Counted from the first letter of the stretch, positions 4,365 through 63,999 are shown. The stretch: 64,000 nt of DNA from Candidatus Micrarchaeota archaeon (GCA_018819225.1 JAHJQN010000005.1:47168-111167); one strand, 5' to 3'. Made by a program: numbers and translations. Notes: generated by a model from the letters alone, not told the origin.

Positions 4365-5162
4365 TTAACGCCGGAGCACGCGGCGGAAGATGCGCCACAC
4401 GCGGCCGAAGAATCCTTCACGGGCATGCATGGGTTCCGTGCTCCCCGTAATAATGCCCACGCCTTCCTTGAGAACGCGCGCCGCAGGCGAAGAACCCTTG
4501 TAGAGTACGATGGGCGTTCGGGCGGCAATGCTTTCCGGAATCAAGTGATCTTCCGGAATCGAGAAAATAACAGGGACTTCCGCCATCGTCTCAATTTCCT
4601 TATTGGATAACTCGAACGGGGAACCCGTCGAGCGATTGACGACGATGCCGCGCACGCGCGTCTTCTTGTCCTGGCACAACGAAACCACTTTCGCTGCCGA
4701 TGTGGAGGAAGGCACATCCGGCGTCGTGATCACGATGACTTCATCGCACGTCTCCAGAATATATTCGACGTCGGACGTGATACCCGGAGGGGAGTCGACG
4801 ATGATGTAGTCGTAAGCCGTCATGCTCCACAACACGTTTTTCAAATTTTTCAAGCTCACGTCCGGATGGTACTTGAGACTCGCCGGAAGCACGCGGATGC
4901 CCGTTTGCGGTTGGACGACGACGGCTTCCGAAACCTTGTTCTTGCCCTGAAGGACTTCTTGAATTCCAACGGCGCCGTAAGATAACCCGAGGTGGAGTCC
5001 AGTCGACGGATTGCTCAAATCGCAATCGACGATAATGGAATTGCGGCCCATGCGCTTGAGAATCGCCGTCGTATTGACGGCTACAACGCTTTTTCCAACG
5101 CCTCCTTTACCGGATACGACCCCGATAATCTTATTCTTACGATTAGTGTTTGCAGCTGGCAT
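4365..5162 (-). CDS. minD: MinD/ParA-family ATPase
   Basis: SGKGGVGKS deviant Walker A, VDCD, IIVDSPPG, C-terminal amphipathic helix GFFGRVWRIFRR. Confidence 0.9.
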   Translation of the reverse strand: MPAANTNRKNKIIGVVSGKGGVGKSVVAVNTTAILKRMGRNSIIVDCDLSNPSTGLHLGLSYGAVGIQEVLQGKNKVSEAVVVQPQTGIRVLPASLKYHPDVSLKNLKNVLWSMTAYDYIIVDSPPGITSDVEYILETCDEVIVITTPDVPSSTSAAKVVSLCQDKKTRVRGIVVNRSTGSPFELSNKEIETMAEVPVIFSIPEDHLIPESIAARTPIVLYKGSSPAARVLKEGVGIITGSTEPMHAREGFFGRVWRIFRRVLRR

Positions 5163-5223
5163 ACCTCATTCTCCAAACACTAGACAACAAGCCCTTTTAA
5201 ATGAGTTTGGGCAAGTGGTTAAA

Positions 5224-6951
5224 CTACTCCATCATTTGCTTGAGTTGCCCCAAATAATCGGAGCGGTCTTGCCGGAACTGTTTGCGGGCATGCGCATCAT
5301 CGCGTTTTTTGCGGAAGGAAACGAACATGGCGGCCGCCGCCACAATCGAAACACCGATGATGGCCGCGACCTCCGGTGGAAAACGCGCGATCAACGTGCT
5401 CACGGAATCGTCTTCGCGTTTGCGCACTTGAACGGGCGTGCTTTTCGCATTCAAACCGTCTTCGGTAAACAAACGGAACGTGAACAAGTGCGACCCCGCG
5501 CTTCCAACGGGCGGGGTGACCCGGAAACCAAACCGCGTAATGCCTCTCGGGAGCAATGGTTTTTGGATTTCCAAGGGCTGTAATTCAAAATCAACGGGCA
5601 CTTCCAGCGCGGCTTGCACGTGCAGCGGTTGAATCCCGGAATAAAACACGTCAACCGCCACTTCCCCTTCTTCCCCCTCGAATAATTCGGGGGCGAACAA
5701 TCCTTTGACTTCCACGAATTCCAAGAGGCGCAACTTTTCCTGCGTGACCGCTACCTGGTCGGTCTGCCAATCCACGTACGTGGAATACGTGGGGAGGACA
5801 AGGGGAAGGACGTACGTGGCGTACGCGATTTCGTTGGGATTCAAATTCAAAAACTCCCATCGAACCTTTAACGGCCGTTCTTGAATGATTTCTCCGGGTT
5901 TATCGAGAAAACGAATGTCTTGCGAGGTCACATCCATGAGAGTGGGAATGGATTCGTAGACGTTGACGACGGGTATGGCTTTCGTGCCCAGATTGCGCAC
6001 GTTGAGCGCGACCGTGGTTTCGCGCGCGAGCCGATCAATGCGGATGTGTCGCAATACGACGGGGTAGGGGTATTCGCGCGGAAAGCTCTTGACGCGCAAT
6101 ACCATGTATTCAATCGTAGGGCGCGTGCTATGAACCTCTAATTTCAGTAAATAATCGCCGGCCAACGCGTAATTCGGAACGGATAAACCGAAATTGATGA
6201 TGCGTTCTTCTCCGGGGCGTAACGTCGTTTCCTTGGGCTGGAACGATACCCAGGATTCGGAAGTCCCGGTCACGAGCAAGCGAATGGTTTTCTCGGTTCC
6301 GCCGTCGTTGCGAATCGTAAAGGATTCGAATGCGCTCGTGCCCGCCAAGAGCTCTCTGAGAACCGTGTGGCGCAAGAACTTGATGTCCCCTTCAACGGGA
6401 ATGATTTCATCCGGCAGGGGTTTCGGGGGCGTGAAATTATCGGTGGGCGGAATGAAAAATCCTCCGGACGAGCCACCCCCTCCCGGGGATTGCGGAGGAG
6501 GAGTCACCGGCGGATTCACGACGGAAAAGCATTCAGAAAACACTTCGCTTTGGTTCGCGTAATCGTCGTAATACGCGGTGGCGTTCGCGCAGTATATGCC
6601 GATGGGAAGCGTGCCCGTGCTCCAGCTCTTGATGAGAATCACTTGCGAAAAACGCGAGATGAGCGTCGGCGAGTAATTGAACGAGTCCACGAGGTCATCC
6701 GTCGTGTTGAAGATGAGGACTTCCGCGGTCGCGTTCGCTTGAACGGTTCCGTTGTTGTAAAGCGTGAGAACGAAGTCGCCGCTGGCCCCTGAATAAATGG
6801 GATCGGGAGCTACGGTCAGGTTTTGGATCGTGACGTTCGTGTAATTAGGCAAGTCGGACCGGAACCACGTCAGCGTGTCCGCGTAATCGGCGTGAGCGAG
6901 ACTACTCAATAAGAAAAGAATAAAAAATAAAAAAAAGGTTTCATGGCTCAC
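5224..6951 (-). CDS. Secreted Ig-like (CARDB/NEW3-type) protein with C-terminal TM anchor; candidate pilus base
   Basis: Probable GTG start overlapping upstream TGA; signal FFLFFILFLLSSLAHA; beta-rich repeats; PPP/GGGGSSGG linker; TM plus basic tail. Confidence 0.75.
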   Translation of the reverse strand: MSHETFFLFFILFLLSSLAHADYADTLTWFRSDLPNYTNVTIQNLTVAPDPIYSGASGDFVLTLYNNGTVQANATAEVLIFNTTDDLVDSFNYSPTLISRFSQVILIKSWSTGTLPIGIYCANATAYYDDYANQSEVFSECFSVVNPPVTPPPQSPGGGGSSGGFFIPPTDNFTPPKPLPDEIIPVEGDIKFLRHTVLRELLAGTSAFESFTIRNDGGTEKTIRLLVTGTSESWVSFQPKETTLRPGEERIINFGLSVPNYALAGDYLLKLEVHSTRPTIEYMVLRVKSFPREYPYPVVLRHIRIDRLARETTVALNVRNLGTKAIPVVNVYESIPTLMDVTSQDIRFLDKPGEIIQERPLKVRWEFLNLNPNEIAYATYVLPLVLPTYSTYVDWQTDQVAVTQEKLRLLEFVEVKGLFAPELFEGEEGEVAVDVFYSGIQPLHVQAALEVPVDFELQPLEIQKPLLPRGITRFGFRVTPPVGSAGSHLFTFRLFTEDGLNAKSTPVQVRKREDDSVSTLIARFPPEVAAIIGVSIVAAAAMFVSFRKKRDDAHARKQFRQDRSDYLGQLKQMME

Positions 6952-7907
6952 GTGACCTCGAAGAACATCGTGTACCATGTTTGTCCGATGCTTCCGCCTC
7001 CCGTGCCGATGTAGTCCAGTTTGTACTTGTAGAACCATTCATCGTTCTTCGCCCCGGACGGCGGCGTGATGTTGATTCCGACGATGTATCGGCCGGGTTT
7101 CACGTCCTTAGCCCTTACTTTAACCGTAATCTTTTGGGTCCAACCCGATTGGAAGACGGGAAATGCCGGTTCCAGCAAGACGTCTACCGGATCCACTGAA
7201 ACGTCAAAGTACTTTTTGGTTTCCTCGGGGTCGACGTCGACGGTACGCGTGCCATCCGCGAACTCGCTTAACTTGAGCTCGCCGTGCGGCGGGTATTCAA
7301 CCGAGAAGGCCATGCCCTGATAGGTCTGCACGAGCCACGTGGAATGGATGAAGAAATGCGTTTCGTATTCGTCGTTTCGTCTGGATAGCACGATGACTTC
7401 GCTCGGGAACGTTCCGTAACCGACTGCGGCCCAGCGGTCCGTCGGAGGATACTGGTACAATTTGCACCCGCTTTCATCGAACATGGGATACCATTCGGGC
7501 TGTTTCCAATAATTTTCCCCGAAATAGTTGGTGTCCGAAATTTTTCCGAGGTGGAACAACAGCTTTTGGACGTAGAAATCTTCAGGGAACGGAGGGACCT
7601 CGGCATACACTTGGGGAGGCAAGTCGCATCGCCGCTTGGCGATCTCGAACGGATCTTCCTGGTATTGCTGCAGGCGAACCATCAAGTCCGGGTACTTGGT
7701 CCAGAACGGATCCTCGGTCGGCGTCGGGGTTGTGGCCACTGTTATGGCCGTTGGAATGATTGTAGGCACCGGAGCCGGAGGAGCAAACGCGTCCTGCAAC
7801 GGTCCCAAGAAATACAGTGCGAGCACCGCGATCACGGCCAATCCAATCCACACTTCCTTGCCCATTTTCTTTCCGTGATGCGACGTGCTATGAGGCTTCT
7901 TCTTCAT
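6948..7907 (-). CDS. N-terminally membrane-anchored extracellular protein
   Basis: Basic N-terminus, TM WIGLAVIAVLALYFL, PT linker, aromatic-rich body. Confidence 0.75.
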   Translation of the reverse strand: MKKKPHSTSHHGKKMGKEVWIGLAVIAVLALYFLGPLQDAFAPPAPVPTIIPTAITVATTPTPTEDPFWTKYPDLMVRLQQYQEDPFEIAKRRCDLPPQVYAEVPPFPEDFYVQKLLFHLGKISDTNYFGENYWKQPEWYPMFDESGCKLYQYPPTDRWAAVGYGTFPSEVIVLSRRNDEYETHFFIHSTWLVQTYQGMAFSVEYPPHGELKLSEFADGTRTVDVDPEETKKYFDVSVDPVDVLLEPAFPVFQSGWTQKITVKVRAKDVKPGRYIVGINITPPSGAKNDEWFYKYKLDYIGTGGGSIGQTWYTMFFEVT

Positions 7908-7927
7908 GATCTTTCCCCCTCTTATGC

Positions 7928-8536
7928 TTAGTTCGCGTTCGTGCTGTTGTGCGTGATCAAACGCTGTTCCACGAGACCGGATACGGACGTGAAGTTCGCG
8001 TACAACGTCACGTTAATCGAACAACATGCGGGTGAAGCCGTGGTATTGAGTTCCTGGAAAATCATTGCTTCCATGGAATTGTTCAACGGAATCTCTGGAC
8101 CAATAGTTACCGCGTTGTTACCCACTCCACTTGCAGAACTGTTCACGCCCACCGTAATACCCGATGGAAGCGATGAATTGAATATGAGCGTCATGCTGAG
8201 ATTCACGTTTCCGGCATTCGTGTACTGGAAAATAGGTACCGCTGCTCCGGCTTGACACGAACCGCCGAATGCGGTGGTCAAACACGGTTCGACTCGCGTG
8301 CACGTTCCGGTGACGCAGGTAAAGTTAATGTCTGCAGTTGCGGGGCCGGGATCGGATGCACTCGAAGCATTCGCTTCACCGGCTCCCAACGGTAATGTAA
8401 TCGTGAAACCCGTGTCCACCGGGACATTGAAGATGACGGCGGTATTCGCCCATTCCGCTAACGGCATGGCAGCCAACGCAATAAATGCGGCAACAAAAAC
8501 AATCAAGCGAAAGTGTTTCCAAACCATTGCGTCCAC
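7928..8536 (-). CDS. Small secreted Cys-containing beta protein; candidate major fimbrial subunit
   Basis: Signal peptide, many NxS/T sequons, homology to the C-terminus of the 8615-13174 protein. Confidence 0.75.
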   Translation of the reverse strand: MDAMVWKHFRLIVFVAAFIALAAMPLAEWANTAVIFNVPVDTGFTITLPLGAGEANASSASDPGPATADINFTCVTGTCTRVEPCLTTAFGGSCQAGAAVPIFQYTNAGNVNLSMTLIFNSSLPSGITVGVNSSASGVGNNAVTIGPEIPLNNSMEAMIFQELNTTASPACCSINVTLYANFTSVSGLVEQRLITHNSTNAN

Positions 8537-8614
8537 CTTTTAATTATACGAAGCGGGGATATGAATCCGTGACGTTTAAGGCCTATATAAAGCTTTCTGC
8601 GAGGGAAAAAATAA

Positions 8615-11600
8615 CTATTGTGATGCGGTGGCGTTGTGAGTAATTTCCACCCACTCGGCCATGCCTCCGCTGACGCCGCTGAAATCAGCCCAGCACCATA
8701 ACTGTTCCCCTTCGCCCGTTGGAACCGTCGTATTCACGAGGAACGGATCCGCCGCACTCGTATTGGTATTAATGGTGTGAGAGCTTCCGTAACCTGCGCC
8801 GGAATTGTGACATTTGAGGGTCACCCCCGTTGGAGGCGTTGCATTCAAGTAAATACTCCAATTGAGATTTGCATCCCCCGTATTATTGAAAATAAAGAAC
8901 GGATTATCATTGTTTTGACAATTCGCGGTATATCCGACGCATGGATGCACCTCCGTTTGATCGCCCGTCAAACTCGTGAAGTTCATGTCCAAGGTAAATG
9001 CAGGCGTGTAGTTGATGTGCAAGGCTGGTTTATTATTTAGTGAGTGGTTTGCAGAAGAGATCACAAAACGTTCTGTTCCTGAATCGGGCACAGATACCGC
9101 ACCGAAGATGGAAATCCATTCCGGGTGATTCAATATTTGGGCATGGGCGATCGCTGGATCCAACGTGAAGTTCTTGTAACCGGTACTCTCGAATAATGCG
9201 GCAGTGGAATTCCAGGTATTCGAAGCATCATTAGAATGCATGGCTTTACAAGATATTAACTGCACGCGACTGACAACATGACCACCCAAAAGTCCATTGT
9301 TTTCTCCTGGATTGGTAGCAGTGGAAACATATAATTCTGCTAGAATTTCATTGAAAATAATTCCGGATCCATTCGTTAATCCGGTTTCAAAATCCATATG
9401 CCATTTTCCGGATGCCCCTATCCCAAGGGTTTGGTTGGCTTCAATCAATTCATCTCCTTCCGGCGTACAAGCCGCATTTCCTGCATTTCCATACTCTGCA
9501 ATATCAAAACTGGGGTAAACCGCTATAGTTCGAGAATAGTTCGCAGTAGAACCAACGGCTCCCCTTCCGGGAATCGTTAACGTAAACGATGTGACGGCTG
9601 GCACGGTCCAAGGCATACGGATGTGCACCTCGCGGTTCGTGCTCAACGTGATGTTTCGAATCGATGAATTGTCGGTATAACCCGGCGAACTGGCATTGAA
9701 GTAATGAGGCGTGTAATCCGTTTGCGTGTTCGTTCCGTCCGGCGCGTTGACGATCGTAAAAGCAGTGAGGGTCTGCCAAGGAGTCATTCCGTTCGAGTCC
9801 GTGGTGATTCCCGTGAGCATTTCCGTGCCAGACGTGTAATTGGTGATCGAAACCGTGGCGCCGTTCATGGGATCGTCGGTCACGTTGGTGACATTCACCA
9901 ACAAAAACCATTGCCGCGTGTAATTGTTTTCATTTCCCCCGAACGTGACCAGGAGGTCATCAAACGAACTGTTGCGGAACACGTGGCCTTGCGAACCGCT
10001 GGAGAGGAATAAATCCTTGTTCTGCGTGTCACGGATGGTGTTGTTGATCCACAGGCTGTTGTTGGAGGCCACGATATGGATGCTGTTGTTGGAATGGTTT
10101 TGAATCGTGTTGTTCGTGAAATTGTTGAAATCGGAGTTGATGATCCTCACGCCCCGCGGTCCTCCCGTAAAGTTGTTGTTCTCGACGACGTGGTCGGTAC
10201 GCGTTCCCGCAGAAACGGACCAAATACCTAATGCTTCCCCGTAACCGTCGCCATTATCTTTCATTTCCTCCACTGTATTGTTCCGAACGACGCACCACGC
10301 ATTGTCGCCGGTCCCCTCGTAACCCAGCGCCATGCCGTACGGAGACTGGTTGACGTAATTGTTTTCTATCGTGCAGTTATCGGAGTGGCCGTAGAAGAGG
10401 ACGGAAAAATCAGCTCCTGACGGCGTGTGAACCGTGTTGTTTCGGAAAATGGTGTTGTTGGACGAGTCCTTGATTTGGATGGCTCCATAACCCTGCGTGC
10501 TGAAATTGTTGTTTCGGATGGTCGTATCGTATGCGAACGAAGCCAATACGCCATGCCGATATCCGTAAAAGGAACAGTTCGCGACGTCGGTTTCGTTAAA
10601 GTTTGTAATCGATACATGCGTTCCAACGCGTCCTACTCGGCTGATCGTATGGCCGTCGCAGTCGAGCGTCAACGTATTTGCCGCGATGGTGAAACAGGAT
10701 CCGGGGGGGGCCGTCAGGTCGTTGTTCAACAAGACGCTTTGTTTAATGGTTCCGCAACTCCCGTTTACAATCGCCGTAAAATTGTTTTTGTCAGTATCCG
10801 TTAAACCCCACTCGTCGGATCCGATGCAATTCCAGATGTATTTATTCGGAGGCAACCCAAAAACATTAAACGCGGTATTCGTCGCATTCTGTAAACCCGT
10901 AGCGCTCGTATTCGAGAAGTTGGCGGCCCAAACTCCGGAAAAGTTGCCCCATAACGTTAGATTTTGAGGAGTTCCGGTGTCCACATCGATACTGCAGTTG
11001 AACGTAACCATCGCTTGGGCACTGCTGGAAACCGTGGTATTATCGGTCGCAGGACTAATCAATACCACGTCAGGGGGCTCGGAGTAATTGACATATAGAT
11101 AAACCTGCGATAACGCATCTTGGGAAGAGATGGGATCCCGATCCTTACGATCTTCATCCTTGATGCCAAATCCGAAGAAATTAGTTCCAAGTCCATTTTC
11201 CATGTCCGTATGAGCTGCGTCTATAAGGGTATAATTCGTCCACTGTAACCCTGGAACCGAAGCCACTCCGGTATGATAAATAGTCGAAGAATTCACGTAA
11301 TCCCACGGCGAATCCGAACTACCGCAGGAAAAACTGGATAACGGTTTGTTGATCGCGCGAATGGTATGGTTACTCGCATGAACAGTATTCCAGTACAACG
11401 AAGCCGTGATGTTGAAAATTTGTGCAGTACCTGGAATGCTGGTGGTGTCCCAGTCAATTGCAGGCCGGTAATCAATATCGTTATAATAGGTTGCAGTCGC
11501 ATTCGTGCACGAAGTACTCGTAAGATTTCCTACGATAAGAGAAAAAGCGCTGTCGACAGCACAACCGTAATAATTGTCGACAGTCGTACAACCAATACCC

Positions 11601-13174
11601 GAATAATTTATGGTGCGCCAGAACGTGGTATCGTTATTGTTTTCAGCAGCGGCATATCGCACAAACGGATCCAAGAATAACTGTTTGCCTTGCAAATTGG
11701 AGATGCGCAGCTCCGTTTGATTCGTCATCGAGAGCGAAAAGCCTTCCTCAATCAAGTCGTTGAAATCCAAAACGATATCGCCCGGTAACATGATGGAATG
11801 ATCCTCGACGTAAACCGTGCTCCAATCCATTTCATCCGATGAGAGCCGTAATCCGATGGACTGAATCTTGTCGTGAATGGGTTGCGGCGAATCCCGGAAA
11901 TCCAAAGCGAACTTCGGATGTTTTTCGTTGCGCACCTGACCGCGGAAGTTAACCCCTAATCCCTGCTTGATTTCGTGAACGCTTTGATCGCGATTCTCGA
12001 ATACGATGAAGGGATCCAGTTTCACCGTGTAATTGGGGGCTTGCAGTTGGAAGTGCGGGTTTTCCCACGTAAACGAAATGTATTCGTTGAAGCCCATCCA
12101 CTTTCCGAAGAAGAACACGTTGACGGGTTTCTGATACAAAATCGCGGTCTTGTATCCGTTGCCGCTTTCGATCACGTCCGCTTTCGCGCCAACGGCTTTC
12201 CCCGTCACCGGCAAGTCGGATTCGAATAATTTGACTCCGCGCGGTTCAATTAATGCGGGAACAAGTGTGGGCATAGGAGTGGCATTTGCGGTGGGCGACG
12301 CGCTAACAGATGGCGTGGGGGTCATCGTGGCGTTCGGGGTTGGAGTCATGGTCGCGTTTGGAGTCGGCGTGGGAGCCGGTGTGGAAAACGAATACCCGTC
12401 TTCCCGCGAGCAGTTTTCAGAATTACAGCTTTCAACTGAGAAGAAATACTGCGTGGATGCCAGGAGACTGGAAAGGGTTAGCGAATGCGTTTGCACGAGC
12501 GAGGAATCCGATTCAATGAGACTGAGATCGATGTCTTGACCGTAATAGACCGTGGAATTCGCGGGCTGGTCGGTATCCCAGGAGATGAGCGCGCTGCTGG
12601 TTTGGGGTTCTGCAGTCACATTATCGATGATGGGAAAATCAGGGTAAGGCGTTGCCGTAGGCGTTGGAGTCGGAGTCGCTTCCAATTCGCAGGCGGTAGC
12701 GCAACACGTGCCGGAGTCGGAAGCATTGAGCCATTGATCGCCAGGACAAATTTCTCCCTCTAAACAAATCGTTCCGTTTTGTTCCGCGCAAGTCGGTTCA
12801 GGGGTCGGAGTCGGTTCTTCCGTGGGAGTAGGTGTCGGGGATTCGCAGGCAACCGCACAACACAAACCGGTATCCGAAGCGTTGAGCCATTGATCGCCAG
12901 GACAAATTTCTTCCTCAGAACAAACGAACCCTCCTTGTTCCGCGCACGTGGGATCGGGAGTGGGCGTGGGCGCTTCAGTTGCAGTAGGAGTAGGGGTTTC
13001 CGTTGGAGTCGGCGTAGGAGTAGCAGTAGGAGTAGGCGTTTCCGTTGGAGAAGGAGTAGGGGTGGGCGTAGGATCGTCGGCCCCGGCAACCGCAGCCAGT
13101 AAAAAGACAATAACCACTAACAATCCAATGTTCGCGAGCAGGAAACTCCCACGGAAACGGGAGGGAAACGGCAT
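8615..13174 (-). CDS. Large secreted multidomain adhesin-like protein (PT linkers, 2 Cys-rich repeats, FN3-like, parallel beta-helix/NosD-like region, C-terminal subunit-like domain)
   Basis: 1519-aa ORF; ISWDTDQPANSTVYYG FN3-like motif; NNT-rich beta-helix repeats; no C-terminal TM. Confidence 0.85.
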   Translation of the reverse strand: MPFPSRFRGSFLLANIGLLVVIVFLLAAVAGADDPTPTPTPSPTETPTPTATPTPTPTETPTPTATEAPTPTPDPTCAEQGGFVCSEEEICPGDQWLNASDTGLCCAVACESPTPTPTEEPTPTPEPTCAEQNGTICLEGEICPGDQWLNASDSGTCCATACELEATPTPTPTATPYPDFPIIDNVTAEPQTSSALISWDTDQPANSTVYYGQDIDLSLIESDSSLVQTHSLTLSSLLASTQYFFSVESCNSENCSREDGYSFSTPAPTPTPNATMTPTPNATMTPTPSVSASPTANATPMPTLVPALIEPRGVKLFESDLPVTGKAVGAKADVIESGNGYKTAILYQKPVNVFFFGKWMGFNEYISFTWENPHFQLQAPNYTVKLDPFIVFENRDQSVHEIKQGLGVNFRGQVRNEKHPKFALDFRDSPQPIHDKIQSIGLRLSSDEMDWSTVYVEDHSIMLPGDIVLDFNDLIEEGFSLSMTNQTELRISNLQGKQLFLDPFVRYAAAENNNDTTFWRTINYSGIGCTTVDNYYGCAVDSAFSLIVGNLTSTSCTNATATYYNDIDYRPAIDWDTTSIPGTAQIFNITASLYWNTVHASNHTIRAINKPLSSFSCGSSDSPWDYVNSSTIYHTGVASVPGLQWTNYTLIDAAHTDMENGLGTNFFGFGIKDEDRKDRDPISSQDALSQVYLYVNYSEPPDVVLISPATDNTTVSSSAQAMVTFNCSIDVDTGTPQNLTLWGNFSGVWAANFSNTSATGLQNATNTAFNVFGLPPNKYIWNCIGSDEWGLTDTDKNNFTAIVNGSCGTIKQSVLLNNDLTAPPGSCFTIAANTLTLDCDGHTISRVGRVGTHVSITNFNETDVANCSFYGYRHGVLASFAYDTTIRNNNFSTQGYGAIQIKDSSNNTIFRNNTVHTPSGADFSVLFYGHSDNCTIENNYVNQSPYGMALGYEGTGDNAWCVVRNNTVEEMKDNGDGYGEALGIWSVSAGTRTDHVVENNNFTGGPRGVRIINSDFNNFTNNTIQNHSNNSIHIVASNNSLWINNTIRDTQNKDLFLSSGSQGHVFRNSSFDDLLVTFGGNENNYTRQWFLLVNVTNVTDDPMNGATVSITNYTSGTEMLTGITTDSNGMTPWQTLTAFTIVNAPDGTNTQTDYTPHYFNASSPGYTDNSSIRNITLSTNREVHIRMPWTVPAVTSFTLTIPGRGAVGSTANYSRTIAVYPSFDIAEYGNAGNAACTPEGDELIEANQTLGIGASGKWHMDFETGLTNGSGIIFNEILAELYVSTATNPGENNGLLGGHVVSRVQLISCKAMHSNDASNTWNSTAALFESTGYKNFTLDPAIAHAQILNHPEWISIFGAVSVPDSGTERFVISSANHSLNNKPALHINYTPAFTLDMNFTSLTGDQTEVHPCVGYTANCQNNDNPFFIFNNTGDANLNWSIYLNATPPTGVTLKCHNSGAGYGSSHTINTNTSAADPFLVNTTVPTGEGEQLWCWADFSGVSGGMAEWVEITHNATASQ

Positions 13175-52196: not shown

Positions 52197-54348
52197 TCGA
52201 TTTTTTCTTTTTGAAAAAAAGAAAACATTCAGTAAAAGAAAAATGAAAACCAATTATGATTCAAAAAAAATATGAAAATATTTTTTGTTTCCCTTTTTCT
52301 TCATTGAAGGGGGAAGCATTCGATGCAATTCCCGAGTAAGTCCTTCTTGGTCCGAAGAGGTTTCGTGGAATGAAGTGCGGAAGAGCATGAAGCAGTATAG
52401 GTTTAGTGTTCACTGAGAATAGTGGCTACTAGAGCCGTTCAGTGGATGGTTTGGCTTAGGTAACGACGAAGGACGTGGCAAGCTGCGATAAGCTCGGGGA
52501 AGGCGCACGCAGCCTCCGATCCCGAGATTTCCGAATCGTTTCGAGAGAAACGGAGACCGGCAGAATTGAAATATCTTAGTATGCCGAGGAAAAGAAATCA
52601 ATAGAGATGCCGTTAGTAACGCGAGTGAAACCGGCGTAGGGCAAACCGAATCCTCTCCGCGAGGAGAGAAGAGATGTGGTGTTGTAGGACCCGCTTTTAG
52701 TGAAGAGACCGTAGCCGAAGTGCGTTGGAAAACGTTGCGATACAAGGTGAAAGCCCTGTAGGCGACACGGTGTTTTCATGTGCGGAGTTCCTGAGTAGCG
52801 CCCGCTGATTTGCGAGCGTGAATCTGGGAGTACTAACTTCCAACCCTAAATATACCCTAAGACCGATAGCGAACCAGTAGCGCGAGCAAAAACTGAAAAG
52901 TATGCAAAAAATGCAAGTAAAAAGAGCCTGAAACTGAAACGGTTACATTAAGGCGCGGCGTAAAAGTAGTATGAGTTCCAACGATACGACGTTGCGCCCT
53001 ACTTCTTGAAGCAAGAGCCAAGGAGTTTATGGAAGTGGCGAGCATTGTGCACAGCGAAAGCGAGACTCCCGCATCGTAGCAATACGAAAGGGGAGGGGTG
53101 GTAATTCGCCCGAAGTCACTGCCATAAGATTTGAAGCCGGAGCGATCTAAGCGTGGGCAGGGCGAAGTCCCTCTTCAGAGGGGCGGAGGCCCGCAACCAG
53201 TGTTAGTCTATCTACTTGGGTGACCCGCGTTTAGGGGTGATAGGTCATTCGAGCCCGGTATTAGCAGATTCCCTCCGAAGTGGCCCGTAGGCCAGCCCTG
53301 TTGGAGGCGAACGATAGGTAGAGCGACTGATTTGGGGGAGCGGGAAGTAACATTCTCACCTCCTTGTCAAACTCCGAAGCTATCGTTGCCGTAGAAGACA
53401 GGAGTCGGGATGTACGAGGTAAGCGCGTACTCCGTGAGGGGAACGACCCCTACGGCGGTTAAGGTCCCAAAGAGTTGCTAAGTGTAAACGAAAGACGTCA
53501 TGGGTCTCAGACAGCGGGGAGGTAGGAACAGAAGCTCCCATCCTTTAAACAACGCGTAACAGCGGACCCGTCAAGATTTGTGGCGTCGTAAACTATCGGG
53601 ACTAAGCAATTCACCGATACCGTCGCACTGCTTTTTTTAAGAGCAGATTGGGTAGGAGGGCGTACGGCTTGGGTAGAAGTCGGGCCGTGAGGTCCGGTCG
53701 ACCGAGTCGTAATGAAGATCTTGGTGCTAGTAGTATCTATTCCAGGTGAGAATCCTGGACGCCGGAAGGGCAAGGGTTTCTTGGCAATGCTTTTCAGCCA
53801 AGAGTTAGTCGGTCCTAAGACTAAACGTAAATGTGATGTCAAAAGGGAAAGGCGTTAATAATCGTCTACCTGTTGGGTGAGTGTGGCAACACAAGATAAT
53901 ATCTAACGCTTGTGGGCAGGCCCCGTGCGATTTATCTCGCACTTAACTTGGATAACGCGAGGAAGTCTCGTTGAGAGGAGCACTCGCGTAAACGAGGAAA
54001 GGGGCTCATCCCAAAAGTCCTTGAAAAGGGTATTAGAATCTTCCTGACAGACCGTACCGAGATCTAGAACAAGTGCCCCTAGCAAAGAAAGCTAAGGCGT
54101 GACAGGAGAACTAAGGCAAGGGAACTCGGCAAAATCGTCCCGTACCTTCGGTACAAGGGATGCCTACACCTCTTCGGAATTTATTGTCGAAGATCTGTAG
54201 GTCGCAGTGACAAGGGGACTCCGACTGTTTAGCAAAAACACAGGTCTCCGCAAAGTGGAAACGCTGTGTACGGAGGCTGACGCCTGCTCACTACCAGTAC
54301 CTGAACCCGGGTTTCAACCTGGTGAAGGGCTGGCAAAGAGCGGGAGTA

Positions 54349-54998
54349 ATTCAAGTCTTCCCGAATAGAATCATCGGAAACGATGCGAGATAATTCATTT
54401 ATCTTAAGCTTCCGTGAAAAACGCATGCGAAAACGATTTCCATCTGAGAAAGAAGAATATTTTCTCGGAGCTTTAGCTGACTCACATCTAGATAAGGAAC
54501 GCAACGAATTGCAAATATACCAAAAAAATGTCGGTTGGTTGCAAATGATGAATGCCTTACTTTTCGAAATTTTCGGATTGAAAGGACGGATTTACAAACG
54601 CGATGTTTATTGGTTAAGAAAACGTAATAAAAACATGATGAAGCGGATACTCGAGCTTCAAACGCTCCCGATATCTGACGGAAAATGTTTTGTTGCGGGA
54701 TTATTCGATGCGGAAGGAAGTGTGTACACTTCCACATCATCTAAGATTCCCGTCTTAGATATAACGCAATGTGAACGTGGATTGGAGAGTCTACACGTTT
54801 CTCAACGCGTTCTATCAAATGTCGGAATAATGAGTCATCTAAATGGTCCATACCAGCATAAGTATGGAAAAATTCCGCAGTATCATCTGCGGATTTATGG
54901 AAAACGTTTTAGTCAGCGTTTTTTAGAACTGATTCCCATAAAACATGTGGAAAAACGAAACAAGTTATCTCGTTTATTGGAGAAGGCTTGGACTCCAC
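54349..54998 (+). mobile_element. 650-nt BHB intron in 23S helix 69 loop (about 1912/1913)
   Basis: GGAG-TAA-TTCAAG...CTTGGA-CTCC-ACA; removal restores GGGAGTAACTCTGACTCTC. Confidence 0.88.
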
Positions 54999-55024
54999 AC
55001 TCTGACTCTCTTAAGGTAGCGTAA
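54383..55024 (+). CDS. LAGLIDADG homing endonuclease of the 23S intron (linear ORF runs into the exon)
   Basis: YFLGALADS and FVAGLFDAEG. Confidence 0.88.
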   Translation: MRDNSFILSFREKRMRKRFPSEKEEYFLGALADSHLDKERNELQIYQKNVGWLQMMNALLFEIFGLKGRIYKRDVYWLRKRNKNMMKRILELQTLPISDGKCFVAGLFDAEGSVYTSTSSKIPVLDITQCERGLESLHVSQRVLSNVGIMSHLNGPYQHKYGKIPQYHLRIYGKRFSQRFLELIPIKHVEKRNKLSRLLEKAWTPHSDSLKVA

Positions 55025-55552
55025 TACCTCGCCGCTTAATTGGCGGCTTGCATGAATGGCGTAACGAGTGTCCTACTGTCCCTGCCTTAGACCTGGCGAA
55101 CCCGCTACTCAGTGAACATGCTGAGGACGTCTAGGGGGAAACGAAGACCCCGTGGAGCTTAACCGCAGCCTGTTGTTGCGCTGTGGTTGGGAGTTCAAAG
55201 CGTAAGCAGGAGCCGTTATGTCCGCCCTTCCGGGGGCGGGATAGGCGAAAGTGTGACACTGCTAATTTTTGACTACGGCGCTCATCCGCAAGGAAACAGC
55301 TGCAGGTGGGCGGTTTGACTGGGGCGGTACGCCTTCGATAAAAAAACAAAGGCGCCCAATGCTTAGCTCAAGAGCGTCAGAAATGCTCTGTAGAGGGTTA
55401 AACACAAATGCTAGGCTGACTGAGACTCTAAAAAAATGAGTCGCAGACACGAAAGTGGGGGTTAACGAACAATGATGTCTCCTTTATTGGGAGCTCATTC
55501 TGACAGACAAGCTACCCCGGGGGTAACAGGCTCGTCGCAGGCAAGAGTTCAT

Positions 55553-55740
55553 ACTCTTTCCTTTTTCTTTTTTAGTGAAAAAGGTTTATCTGCGTACGAC
55601 GGATCTAACGTTTCTTTTCTAGAATGTCAATAGTACGAGCGAAAATTTTCTCGCAACCAAGTGCTATTGAAAATCAGAGAGGTAACGCCGTCGGACGCGA
55701 CGATTTGGGAAACGTTTTTTTCTCTCATCGAGAGGAGGAA
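55553..55740 (+). mobile_element. 188-nt ORF-less intron in 23S helix 89 (about 2477/2478), relaxed BHB, boundary +/-1 nt
   Basis: Removal restores AAGAGTTCATATCGACC; terminal stem TCTTTC/GAGAGG. Confidence 0.8.
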
Positions 55741-56322
55741 ATCGACCCTGCGGTTTGGTACATCGCTATCGGCTCAGGTCATCCTGGTGGTGCAGGAGCC
55801 ACCAAGGGTTGGGTTGTTCATCCATTAAAGACCTACGTTAGTTGGGTTCAGAACGTCGCGAGACAGTTCGGTGGCATCTCCTAGGCGTGTTTGGCCGTCT
55901 GAGGGTAAGGTTCCCTAAGTACGAGAGGAACGGGGAATCGGCGCCTCTGGTGGAGCGGCTGTTTTACAAAGCAAGCCGCGTGGCTACGCGCTAACGAATA
56001 AGCCCTGAAGGCATCTAAGGACGAAGTCGTTCCTAAAACGAGACGGCCCAGGTCAGTTACAGCACATGACGTTGATAGGGCGGACGTGTAAACCCCGAGC
56101 TTCGGCGAGGGGCGAGCGAACCGCTACTAACGACCTTTTTTTCATCACCCTCCCTTGTAGAAGGATGCAAAACATGTTACAACGAGGGTTGTTATGAAAA
56201 CCATTGTTCTCAATGAAACACTAAACCGATATTGCTTTCTCAAATTCCGCACTTCCTTGTGCATCGTTTATTTTGAAAGCCCGAGCGCAAGCCATATAAA
56301 AACGGGTGGCATTAAGTGGCGC

Positions 56323-63889: not shown

Positions 63890-63999
63890 GCCCTGGTAGC
63901 TCAGTCGGTAGAGCGGCTGACTGTTATCCTTATTGTTCCAATACGGTTCAGTAATGGACAGTGATCAGCAGGCCGCAGGTTCAAATCCTGCCCAGGGCG
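63890..63999 (+). tRNA. tRNA-Asn(GTT) with canonical 37/38 intron (63927-63963)
   Basis: GCCCTGG/CCAGGGC acceptor stem, CTGT/ACAG BHB helix. Confidence 0.94.

Follow-up and report, generated by a model that had tools for sequence, protein, structure and literature searches.

What is built by the products of five adjacent genes in a genome of Candidatus Micrarchaeota archaeon? The genes lie in a stretch of 64,000 nucleotides (GCA_018819225.1 JAHJQN010000005.1:47168-111167), here called the window, from the first letter of which all positions are counted. An earlier note, made by a model from this DNA without knowledge of its origin, proposed that they encode a donor-strand pilus of a DPANN symbiont, with a tip adhesin, a shaft subunit, a membrane base, an accessory protein and MinD. 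The source does belong to Micrarchaeota, and five co-oriented open reading frames (ORFs) are found on the minus strand where the note had placed them. From the sequences and from structure models, we consider it probable that the five genes encode a Sec-exported surface fibre, heavily N-glycosylated by prediction, the parts of which would be joined by donor-strand complementation. The genes of the cassette, in the order of transcription, are as follows.

8615-13174, minus strand: gene of the large secreted protein, 1519 amino acids (aa), candidate tip adhesin
7928-8536, minus strand: gene of the small secreted subunit, a 202-aa ORF, probably 199 aa from the ATG at 8527
6948-7907, minus strand: gene of the accessory protein (Acc), 319 aa, candidate membrane-bound chaperone or assembly factor
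5224-7038, minus strand: gene of the membrane anchor, a 604-aa ORF with a likely start at 6951 or 6978
4365-5162, minus strand: gene of a MinD/ParA-type ATPase, 265 aa

The gaps between consecutive genes measure 78, 20, about 0 and 61 bp.

A domain shared by the two secreted proteins

The small protein consists of a Sec-type signal peptide and a beta-sandwich of about 175 aa, and contains 10 N-glycosylation sequons (5.0 per 100 aa). Its alignment with the C-terminus of the large protein, on which the earlier note had built its proposal, is reproduced by BLASTP, with residues 67-199 of the small protein matching residues 1394-1516 of the large one at 32% identity (E 5e-14), and is extended by the profile of the small protein, which matches residues 1384-1519 (E 8e-41). 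The first strand is a separate case: the pair FNVPVDTGFTITLP / WTVPAVTSFTLTIP taken alone reaches E 0.65, and the copy in the large protein lies 190 residues upstream of the main alignment. In the orthologue of the large protein from another locus (L001), the first-strand segment and the remainder of the domain are contiguous, and for this reason the two segments can be taken as homologous, and the large protein of the window as carrying about 190 additional aa within the first loop. Neither the L001 orthologue nor any other large protein examined has this insertion, which may form an extra subdomain beside the predicted strand-accepting groove. Sequence comparison confirms the small protein as a paralogue of the C-terminal domain of the large protein.

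8618-9610, minus strand: C-terminal subunit-like (predicted acceptor) domain of the large protein, residues 1189-1519
8996-9568, minus strand: insertion of about 190 aa in the first loop of this domain, residues 1203-1393

A profile search of 1.84 billion proteins yields 336 representatives of the small-protein family at 50% identity, of which about two thirds are stand-alone secreted proteins of 180-215 aa and about one third are C-terminal domains of proteins of 240-2200 aa. The family has no match in Pfam or NCBIfam, the profile retrieves nothing from the PDB sequences at E up to 1, and scans of viral contigs with two query proteins (P0011 and P0004) returned zero relatives.

The large protein of the window combines a signal peptide, linkers rich in proline and threonine (PT), two Cys-rich repeats, a right-handed beta-helix (residues about 843-1069, with matches to Pfam Beta_helix and NosD), an fn3-like domain and the C-terminal subunit-like domain, and is densely furnished with sequons (66, or 4.3 per 100 aa). 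Large proteins differ among loci, ranging from 298 to 3752 aa, with payloads that include a beta-helix, CBM96, a ConA-like lectin (Laminin_G_3) and bacterial immunoglobulin (Ig) domains (Big_7). Variable payloads on a constant C-terminal module are what would be expected of exchangeable adhesin heads.

The two Cys-rich modules of the window's large protein, about 35 aa each and located near the N-terminus with Pro/Thr linkers between them (12686-12946, minus strand), follow the pattern CAEQ..G..C.E.EICPGDQWLNASD.G.CC...CE.

An N-terminal motif and a proposed division of roles

Nearly all stand-alone members of the family have, immediately behind the predicted cleavage site (which follows an A), a motif that reads roughly [DE]-[FYW]-A-x-T-x-V-[YFW]-F-N-[VI]-P and continues with S-F-T-V-T-L-P. 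Its residues alternate in hydrophobicity, as in a beta-strand. The conservation of the N-terminus, which the earlier note had named as decisive for its proposal, is thus found in about 100 stand-alone homologues.

8414-8455, minus strand: predicted donor strand of the small subunit, mature residues 1-14 (EWANTAVIFNVPVD), delimited by the conserved motif and the three-copy model

The large proteins keep the body of the domain, down to clade-specific variants such as SFTVFTLG, and are devoid of the motif. The anchors, which are 550-650 aa long across the loci, have the motif and are devoid of the domain. Because the anchors possess the motif without the domain, the small proteins both, and the large proteins the domain without the motif, the sequences fit the roles of a donor-only anchor, a donor-plus-acceptor shaft and an acceptor-only adhesin, in agreement with the scheme first put forward for this locus. 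We also considered whether the large protein could complement itself with a strand of its own from upstream of the subunit-like domain; that segment lacks the motif and aligns poorly, and self-complementation is neither supported nor excluded by the sequences.

The anchor of the window comprises a signal peptide, the N-terminal strand motif, about four Ig domains resembling CARDB and NPCBM_assoc, and a C-terminal transmembrane (TM) helix. It is encoded by a single-copy gene in this genome and has 1.7 sequons per 100 aa. After the TM helix, the anchors have in common a cytoplasmic tail with the motif …R-x-x-Y-[LI]-x-x-[IL]-K….

6859-6888, minus strand: mature N-terminus of the anchor, DYADTLTWFR, predicted donor strand for the basal subunit, co-varying with the subunit N-terminus
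5314-5370, minus strand: C-terminal TM helix of the anchor
5227-5313, minus strand: conserved cytoplasmic tail of the anchor

The longest ORF of the anchor shares 91 bases (6948-7038) with the end of the accessory gene, and a normal anchor signal peptide results from a start at the GTG at 6951, directly past the accessory stop, or at the ATG at 6978. The start of the anchor is uncertain; the mature anchor is the same whichever start is used.

The resemblance between the mature N-termini of subunit and anchor, noticed at the outset in the window, can be followed across the family. We scored, for each locus, the best ungapped BLOSUM62 match of the subunit 10-mer within the first 110 residues of its own anchor. 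For 22 matched subunit-anchor pairs, the mean is 22.7, vs 16.15 +/- 1.06 after permutation of the partners, and no permuted set among 20,000 comes up to the observed value. The N-termini of anchor and subunit change together from one locus to another, as in the pairs (anchor/subunit) GYTTTPTYLS/KYTTTLTYFN, DFIQTRIFFS/QFVQTTVIFS and DFAGSRAYFI/DFASTRVFFI, and a distant contig shows GYYGTSRSYF/NYATTRVYF.

Conservation and distribution of the cassette

How constant is the association of these genes? We compared 20 fetched loci together with L001 and clustered all neighbours against each other. In each of the 20 and in L001, the order is large gene, small gene (one or two copies), accessory gene, anchor gene, MinD gene; most loci have a single small gene, and where the sequence reaches far enough (19 loci), the MinD gene closes the cassette in all but one. 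The clustering of the fetched loci revealed no additional conserved neighbour family around the cassette. Three distant contigs (L056-L058) have the same components, with two Acc paralogues and a terminal ParA gene. Co-occurrence of the subunit with adhesin-type, accessory, anchor and MinD genes, another point that the earlier note had singled out, therefore holds in 20 of 20 fetched loci and in the three distant contigs. The source labels of the homologues include Ca. Micrarchaeota, Norongarragalinales and Burarchaeum.

The subunit domain is present in 28 of the 401 genomes sampled from the phylum, and in almost all of the 28 a small gene stands directly behind a large gene whose product has this domain at its C-terminal end.

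This distribution bears on the notion that the proteins make up an S-layer or another surface lattice, in which the large NosD-like glycoprotein would be the coat protein and the TM protein the stalk, as in SlaA/SlaB. The S-layer protein of Micrarchaeum is a glycoprotein of ~101 kDa with copper-binding (NosD-like) and glycoside-hydrolase-like regions and no clear anchor (10.1101/2021.04.28.441871), the large protein described here likewise has a NosD/beta-helix region and many sequons, and a second, TM-bearing stalk protein has been suggested for the S-layer protein of Ca. Micrarchaeum harzensis. A lattice is nonetheless hard to reconcile with the patchy distribution (28 of 401 sampled genomes) and with large proteins that vary from 298 to 3752 aa and differ in payload; Pfam and NCBIfam scans of the cassette proteins detected no S-layer domain, and the small paralogue and the strand motif would be left without a role. 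We regard a surface lattice as most improbable.

Two departures from the standard cassette were observed. At L057:11046-13184, between the accessory and ParA genes, lies the gene of a 712-aa protein with matches to DUF87/HerA-type ATPases (T4SS-DNA_transf, weak), the N-terminal part of which weakly matches the anchor profile. The other occurs at L003:1-8713 and also in L004, where about 18 short ORFs, two of them with weak helix-turn-helix/TrmB matches, accompany an accessory gene and a small subunit that has diverged to 33% identity, and where the anchor and MinD genes are absent; this may be a mobile-element context.

Predicted fold of the subunit and contacts between subunits

The mature subunit was modelled with AlphaFold2 (AF2) from an alignment of 149 sequences. 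The model is all-beta, with a mean confidence (pLDDT) of 90.6, and residues 1-16 form no strand in the monomer. A Foldseek search of the PDB with this model gives zero matches at E 0.001 or better; the best has E 0.027, and the list is rich in subunits of strand-donating fibres, namely CfaB, CS20, Csu, AbpA and cannula. An exhaustive structure aligner, for which Z below 8 is common by chance, gives Z 6.9 for the Csu pilin, 6.8 for a CanA-like tube, 6.7 for AbpA (root-mean-square deviation 6.2, 134 residues aligned), 6.1 for TasA (deviation 3.5, 131 aligned), 5.9 for the subunit of Tat-fimbriae (Tafi) and 5.1 for Saci_0406. Clusters of the ESM Atlas with Peptidase_M73 (TasA/camelysin) match the subunit at TM-scores of 0.58-0.61, and one of these is fused to a beta-helix. 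PF12389 is absent from the subunit, from the 149 family members and from the six-frame translation of the genome, which is 90% complete. At the fold level, the model weakly suggests a TasA- or pilin-like sandwich, with homology unproven.

When three mature copies are modelled together, the interface score (ipSAE) is 0.65 (runs 0.67, 0.61 and 0.65), vs 0.00 for the best of three controls. Among solved proteins, 20 of 30 one-chain pairs and 1 of 23 single chains attain the same mark; these counts hold roughly here, given that three copies with a custom alignment lie outside the calibration of the tool. The runs share at least 95% of contacts, and the pLDDT of the partner is at least 79. The contact is head-to-tail, with residues 1-14 of one copy packed against residues 30-48, 96-102 and 153-171 of the next. 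The modelled donor strand is flanked by the TADINFT strand and the C-terminal one (LVEQRLITH), the expected errors being 0.9-1.5 A; these two strands, which line the groove, are also the segments best conserved when the small and the large protein are compared. In line with the open groove that the earlier note expected, residues 1-14 enter the next copy in the three-copy model, and residues 1-16 have no strand in the monomer model. Insertion of the N-terminal strand between subunit copies is thus predicted by the modelling.

Could the motif have nothing to do with joining? The proteins might simply be co-located surface proteins that have in common a beta-sandwich module and a motif for export or processing, such as a signal for a peptidase, for glycosylation or for the 319-aa protein. 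Both in the subunit and in the anchor, the motif is directly behind the signal-peptide cleavage site, and the fold matches are unspecific. Yet the motif is strand-like in its alternation of hydrophobic residues, the model buries it in the core of the neighbour with the small expected errors given above (0.9-1.5 A), the large protein is exported and has the domain without the motif, and no peptidase is conserved in the cassette. The absence of any strand-mediated joining appears to us highly unlikely.

The number of subunits is a different matter, and here the expression of the small gene is of interest. A T-run (TTATTTTTT) immediately follows the stop of the large gene (region 8584-8614, minus strand), and downstream of it come a TATA-like box (TTTATATA) and a GGTG Shine-Dalgarno-like site ahead of the ATG at 8527. 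This arrangement points to possible transcription of the small subunit gene independently of the large gene. Further TATA-like boxes lie upstream of the large gene (about 13195) and of the MinD gene (about 5195).

Instead of a filament, the same strand insertions could produce a tether for adhesin display, in which a single subunit serves as an adaptor between the large protein and the anchor (1:1:1) and the Ig stalk gives reach. The anchor already has about four Ig-like domains, most loci have one small gene, and the co-variation speaks for contact between anchor and subunit, not between subunits. What argues for a chain is the confident head-to-tail subunit-subunit model (ipSAE 0.65 vs 0.00 for the best control, outside calibration), together with the T-run and TATA-like box between the large and small genes, which would permit separate, higher expression of the subunit, and the ratio of stand-alone subunits to fused forms in the family, about 2 to 1. 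On balance, we consider a single-adaptor tether rather unlikely.

The accessory protein and the ATPase

Acc consists of an N-terminal membrane tether, a PT linker, a helical part and a PapD-like/ASH-type Ig domain, and its AF2 model has pLDDT 92. The family of 43 sequences has zero matches in Pfam or among PDB sequences, including zero to PapD_N and PapD_C. Structurally, the Ig domain matches PapD-like/ASH/MSP domains and the pilus chaperones FimC, FaeE and CfaA at E about 1e-5 in Foldseek. With the exhaustive aligner, EcpB scores Z 7.8, WxLIP 7.5, YadV 7.2 and FimC 6.8, FaeE falls within the pilus-chaperone range of 6.6-7.8, and generic Ig folds are interspersed among these. A lipobox-like L-x-G-C occurs in 16 of 42 homologues and an N-terminal helix in the rest, so that, by sequence, all appear to be tethered outside the membrane. 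Acc has one sequon (0.3 per 100 aa), vs 5.0 in the subunit and 4.3 in the large protein.

The small gene lies between two Acc paralogues, the first behind the large gene and the second behind the small gene itself, at L054:6035-8685, L055:1396-3927, L056:7208-9640 and L058:6453-8860.

Duplication of Acc, with one copy per structural gene, is seen in L054-L058, and this pattern fits a subunit-specific assembly factor. From the fold class and the gene pattern, we infer that Acc is a candidate chaperone or subunit-specific assembly factor, as the earlier note had supposed of the 319-aa protein.

The ATPase has a deviant Walker A motif, GKGGVGKS, and a basic amphipathic C-terminus, and matches ParA (PF10609, E 1.7e-22), AAA_31 and CbiA in Pfam. 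Its score against TIGR01969 (minD_arch), 160 bits, is under the cut-off of 201.75, and it is for this reason assigned to the family but not to the MinD equivalog. The genome contains four MinD/ParA paralogues, and the copy in the cassette is 31% identical to the nearest; by these sequence comparisons, it appears to be a dedicated MinD/ParA paralogue. By analogy with TadZ/CpaE, BcsQ and archaeal MinD4, it probably positions or clusters the anchor via the conserved cytoplasmic tail.

Proposed assembly and its standing

Taken together, the sequences and models allow us to propose an assembly scheme for the fibre. The large protein would be the distal tip, carrying a lineage-variable binding payload and ending in an acceptor-only copy of the subunit domain. 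The subunit of about 200 aa would donate mature residues ~1-14, its N-terminal strand, to the sandwich of the distal unit and take a strand from the proximal one, giving a chain of one or more copies. The 604-aa anchor would plug the last subunit with its own N-terminal strand, and its Ig stalk and C-terminal TM helix would tie the fibre to the membrane. The 319-aa PapD-like protein, anchored as a lipoprotein or by its signal sequence, probably holds and primes freshly exported subunits at the membrane, and on the cytoplasmic side, the MinD/ParA ATPase would probably place or cluster the anchor by way of the conserved tail. We infer the polarity, the length of the polymer, the chaperone role of Acc, the role of MinD and host attachment.

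Several points weigh against the fibre and have to be set beside the evidence in its favour. All of this evidence is in silico, and the searches of Pfam, NCBIfam and PDB disclosed no sequence link from the cassette families to any known pilin, chaperone or TasA family. The fold matches of the subunit are middling (Z < 8, Foldseek E 0.027 or worse), and non-pilus Ig folds, such as MSP/PapD-like domains, the integrin hybrid domain and accessory domains of glycoside hydrolases, score alongside the pilins. The complex modelling covered the contact between subunits, in a three-copy setting beyond the calibration of the tool, and such models may favour the strand-swap shape. The loci compared are related, and therefore the co-variation amounts to fewer than 22 effective co-changes, perhaps 4-6 independent changes at the level of clades. 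The very pair from which the likeness of N-termini was first drawn, EWANTAVIF in the window's subunit and DYADTLTWF in its anchor, is a weak match that ranks 14 of 22, so that the likeness claimed in the earlier note stands for the family and is poor for the window itself. The motif could also be a recognition site for a processing or chaperone step common to both proteins. Finally, with 28 of 401 genomes positive, the cassette is not a general attachment device of Micrarchaeota.

A bolder version of the fibre hypothesis takes the cassette for a self-contained archaeal pilus pathway, in which a membrane-tethered PapD-like chaperone primes TasA-like subunits for donor-strand exchange and a MinD/ParA ATPase, acting via the anchor tail, sets the site of the fibre. 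The fibre would then serve the Micrarchaeota that possess the cassette as their host-contact organelle, and would be the first of the donor-strand kind to be coupled to a cytoplasmic positioning ATPase. We offer this version tentatively and consider it doubtful as a whole.

The molecular basis of host attachment in DPANN is largely unknown, and the cassette is a candidate for the way in which these cells hold their hosts, with named parts, that is, a modular adhesin, a shaft subunit, an anchor and a candidate chaperone. If the fibre is real, a new family without detectable sequence link joins the donor-strand fibres of Gram-negatives, Bacillota, bacteria of the Candidate Phyla Radiation (CPR) and several archaea, and the cassette would be the first donor-strand system with a dedicated MinD/ParA partner. 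Description of the subunit and accessory families would annotate hundreds of metagenomic 'hypothetical proteins'.

Genomic setting

The cassette lies on a contig of 709 kb, in a genome of 1.37 Mb that is 90% complete, and is flanked by ribosomal-protein genes, with L15e, S13, S4 and S11 on one side and NusA-KH and S7 on the other. The window also includes an rRNA operon, which marks it as archaeal. The 23S rRNA match (52418-56149) spans 3732 bases vs 2987 positions of the model, and the gene probably contains one or more insertions or introns, ~750 bases in total. Similarly, a tRNA match at 63890-63999 covers 110 bases vs 71 model positions, which suggests an intron in this tRNA gene.

Comparison with known systems

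Is the cassette a version of something already described? A literature search found no description of it in Micrarchaeota or DPANN, so that, as regards the protein family, the epithet 'undescribed' that the earlier note had applied is justified; the architecture, in contrast, has close published analogues.

A type IV pilus or archaellum was rejected: the signal peptides are of the Sec type, with A-x-A-like sites followed by a polar strand, and not of class III, and a prepilin peptidase and a PilB/PilC-type ATPase and platform are absent from the cassette.

With the chaperone-usher pili (Fim, Pap, CFA/I, Csu), the cassette has in common a predicted N-terminal donor strand and a candidate adhesin with a C-terminal subunit domain, and the Ig domain of the presumed chaperone has fold matches to PapD-like chaperones, mixed with generic Ig folds. 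Completion of the sandwich by the N-terminal strand of the next subunit is present here as a prediction, in the three-copy model. The cassette differs in having no outer membrane to cross and no membership in these families by sequence, and its candidate chaperone combines a single Ig domain with a helical part and is membrane-tethered. None of the five conserved cassette families is a large beta-barrel protein of the kind that could be an usher, and no peptidase is conserved in the cassette among the fetched loci.

Archaea have non-type-IV fibres of their own. Threads (Saci_0406) and Tafi are glycosylated strand-donation fibres with proposed cap or tip and anchor proteins, which for Tafi are a tip, TafC, and membrane anchors, TafF; Tafi depend on Tat export and a dedicated peptidase (PMC9715654, PMC12337348). 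The subunit has a weak fold match to either (Saci_0406 Z 5.1, Tafi Z 5.9) and no sequence match, and neither an anchor with a co-varying N-terminal strand nor a MinD gene has been described for these fibres.

The Pam pili of CPR bacteria come nearer in lifestyle, being donor-strand pili of an ultra-small episymbiont, reported as exclusive to CPR (PMC13278184). They resemble the cassette in the membrane-anchored chaperone-like PamC/D, the tip pilin and the membrane-anchoring terminator (PMC13278184). They are bacterial, however, with two-domain pilins that have a linker strand and with ATP-synthase genes as neighbours, and MinD has not been described for them (PMC13278184).

In the TasA/TapA fibres of Bacillus and the archaeal bundling pili AbpA/AbpB, TapA donates its own N-terminus to TasA (PMC10151520), and AbpB is proposed to donate its N-terminus to AbpA (PMC9674648, PMC10151520, PMC9245690). 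The cassette is similar to both in its predicted N-terminal donor strand, Sec export, presumed strand-donating anchor and lack of an usher, and its subunit model weakly resembles their jelly-roll-like sandwich. The differences are the absence of a PF12389 match, the absence of a SipW-type peptidase from the conserved cassette genes, the integral membrane anchor, the large tip protein that carries the subunit domain, and Acc and MinD, which have no counterparts there.

The Elr/WxL pilus of Enterococcus faecalis and other Bacillota has a donor-only base, with an N-terminus that follows the pilin strand motif and a membrane-tethered C-terminus, a pilin that both donates and accepts, tip adhesins in which an acceptor module, invariant and C-terminal, is combined with a payload that varies and is often a beta-helix or a lectin, and a membrane-anchored chaperone (10.64898/2026.10.17.759780). 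The same architecture recurs in the cassette, where the anchors have the motif alone, the small proteins both motif and domain, and the large proteins the domain alone; an outer membrane is likewise absent, and at the fold level the Acc model has a match to WxLIP of Z 7.5, within the range common by chance. In contrast to the Elr/WxL system, the cassette lacks Pfam sequence matches to WxL, DUF916 and DUF3324 as well as a sortase and LPXTG, and has a multi-Ig TM anchor, an archaeal host, proteins that are N-glycosylated by prediction, and a MinD/ParA ATPase. By sequence, the cassette proteins fall outside all the systems compared here; in its logic, as far as this can be read from the sequences, the cassette matches Elr/WxL, Pam and TasA/TapA.

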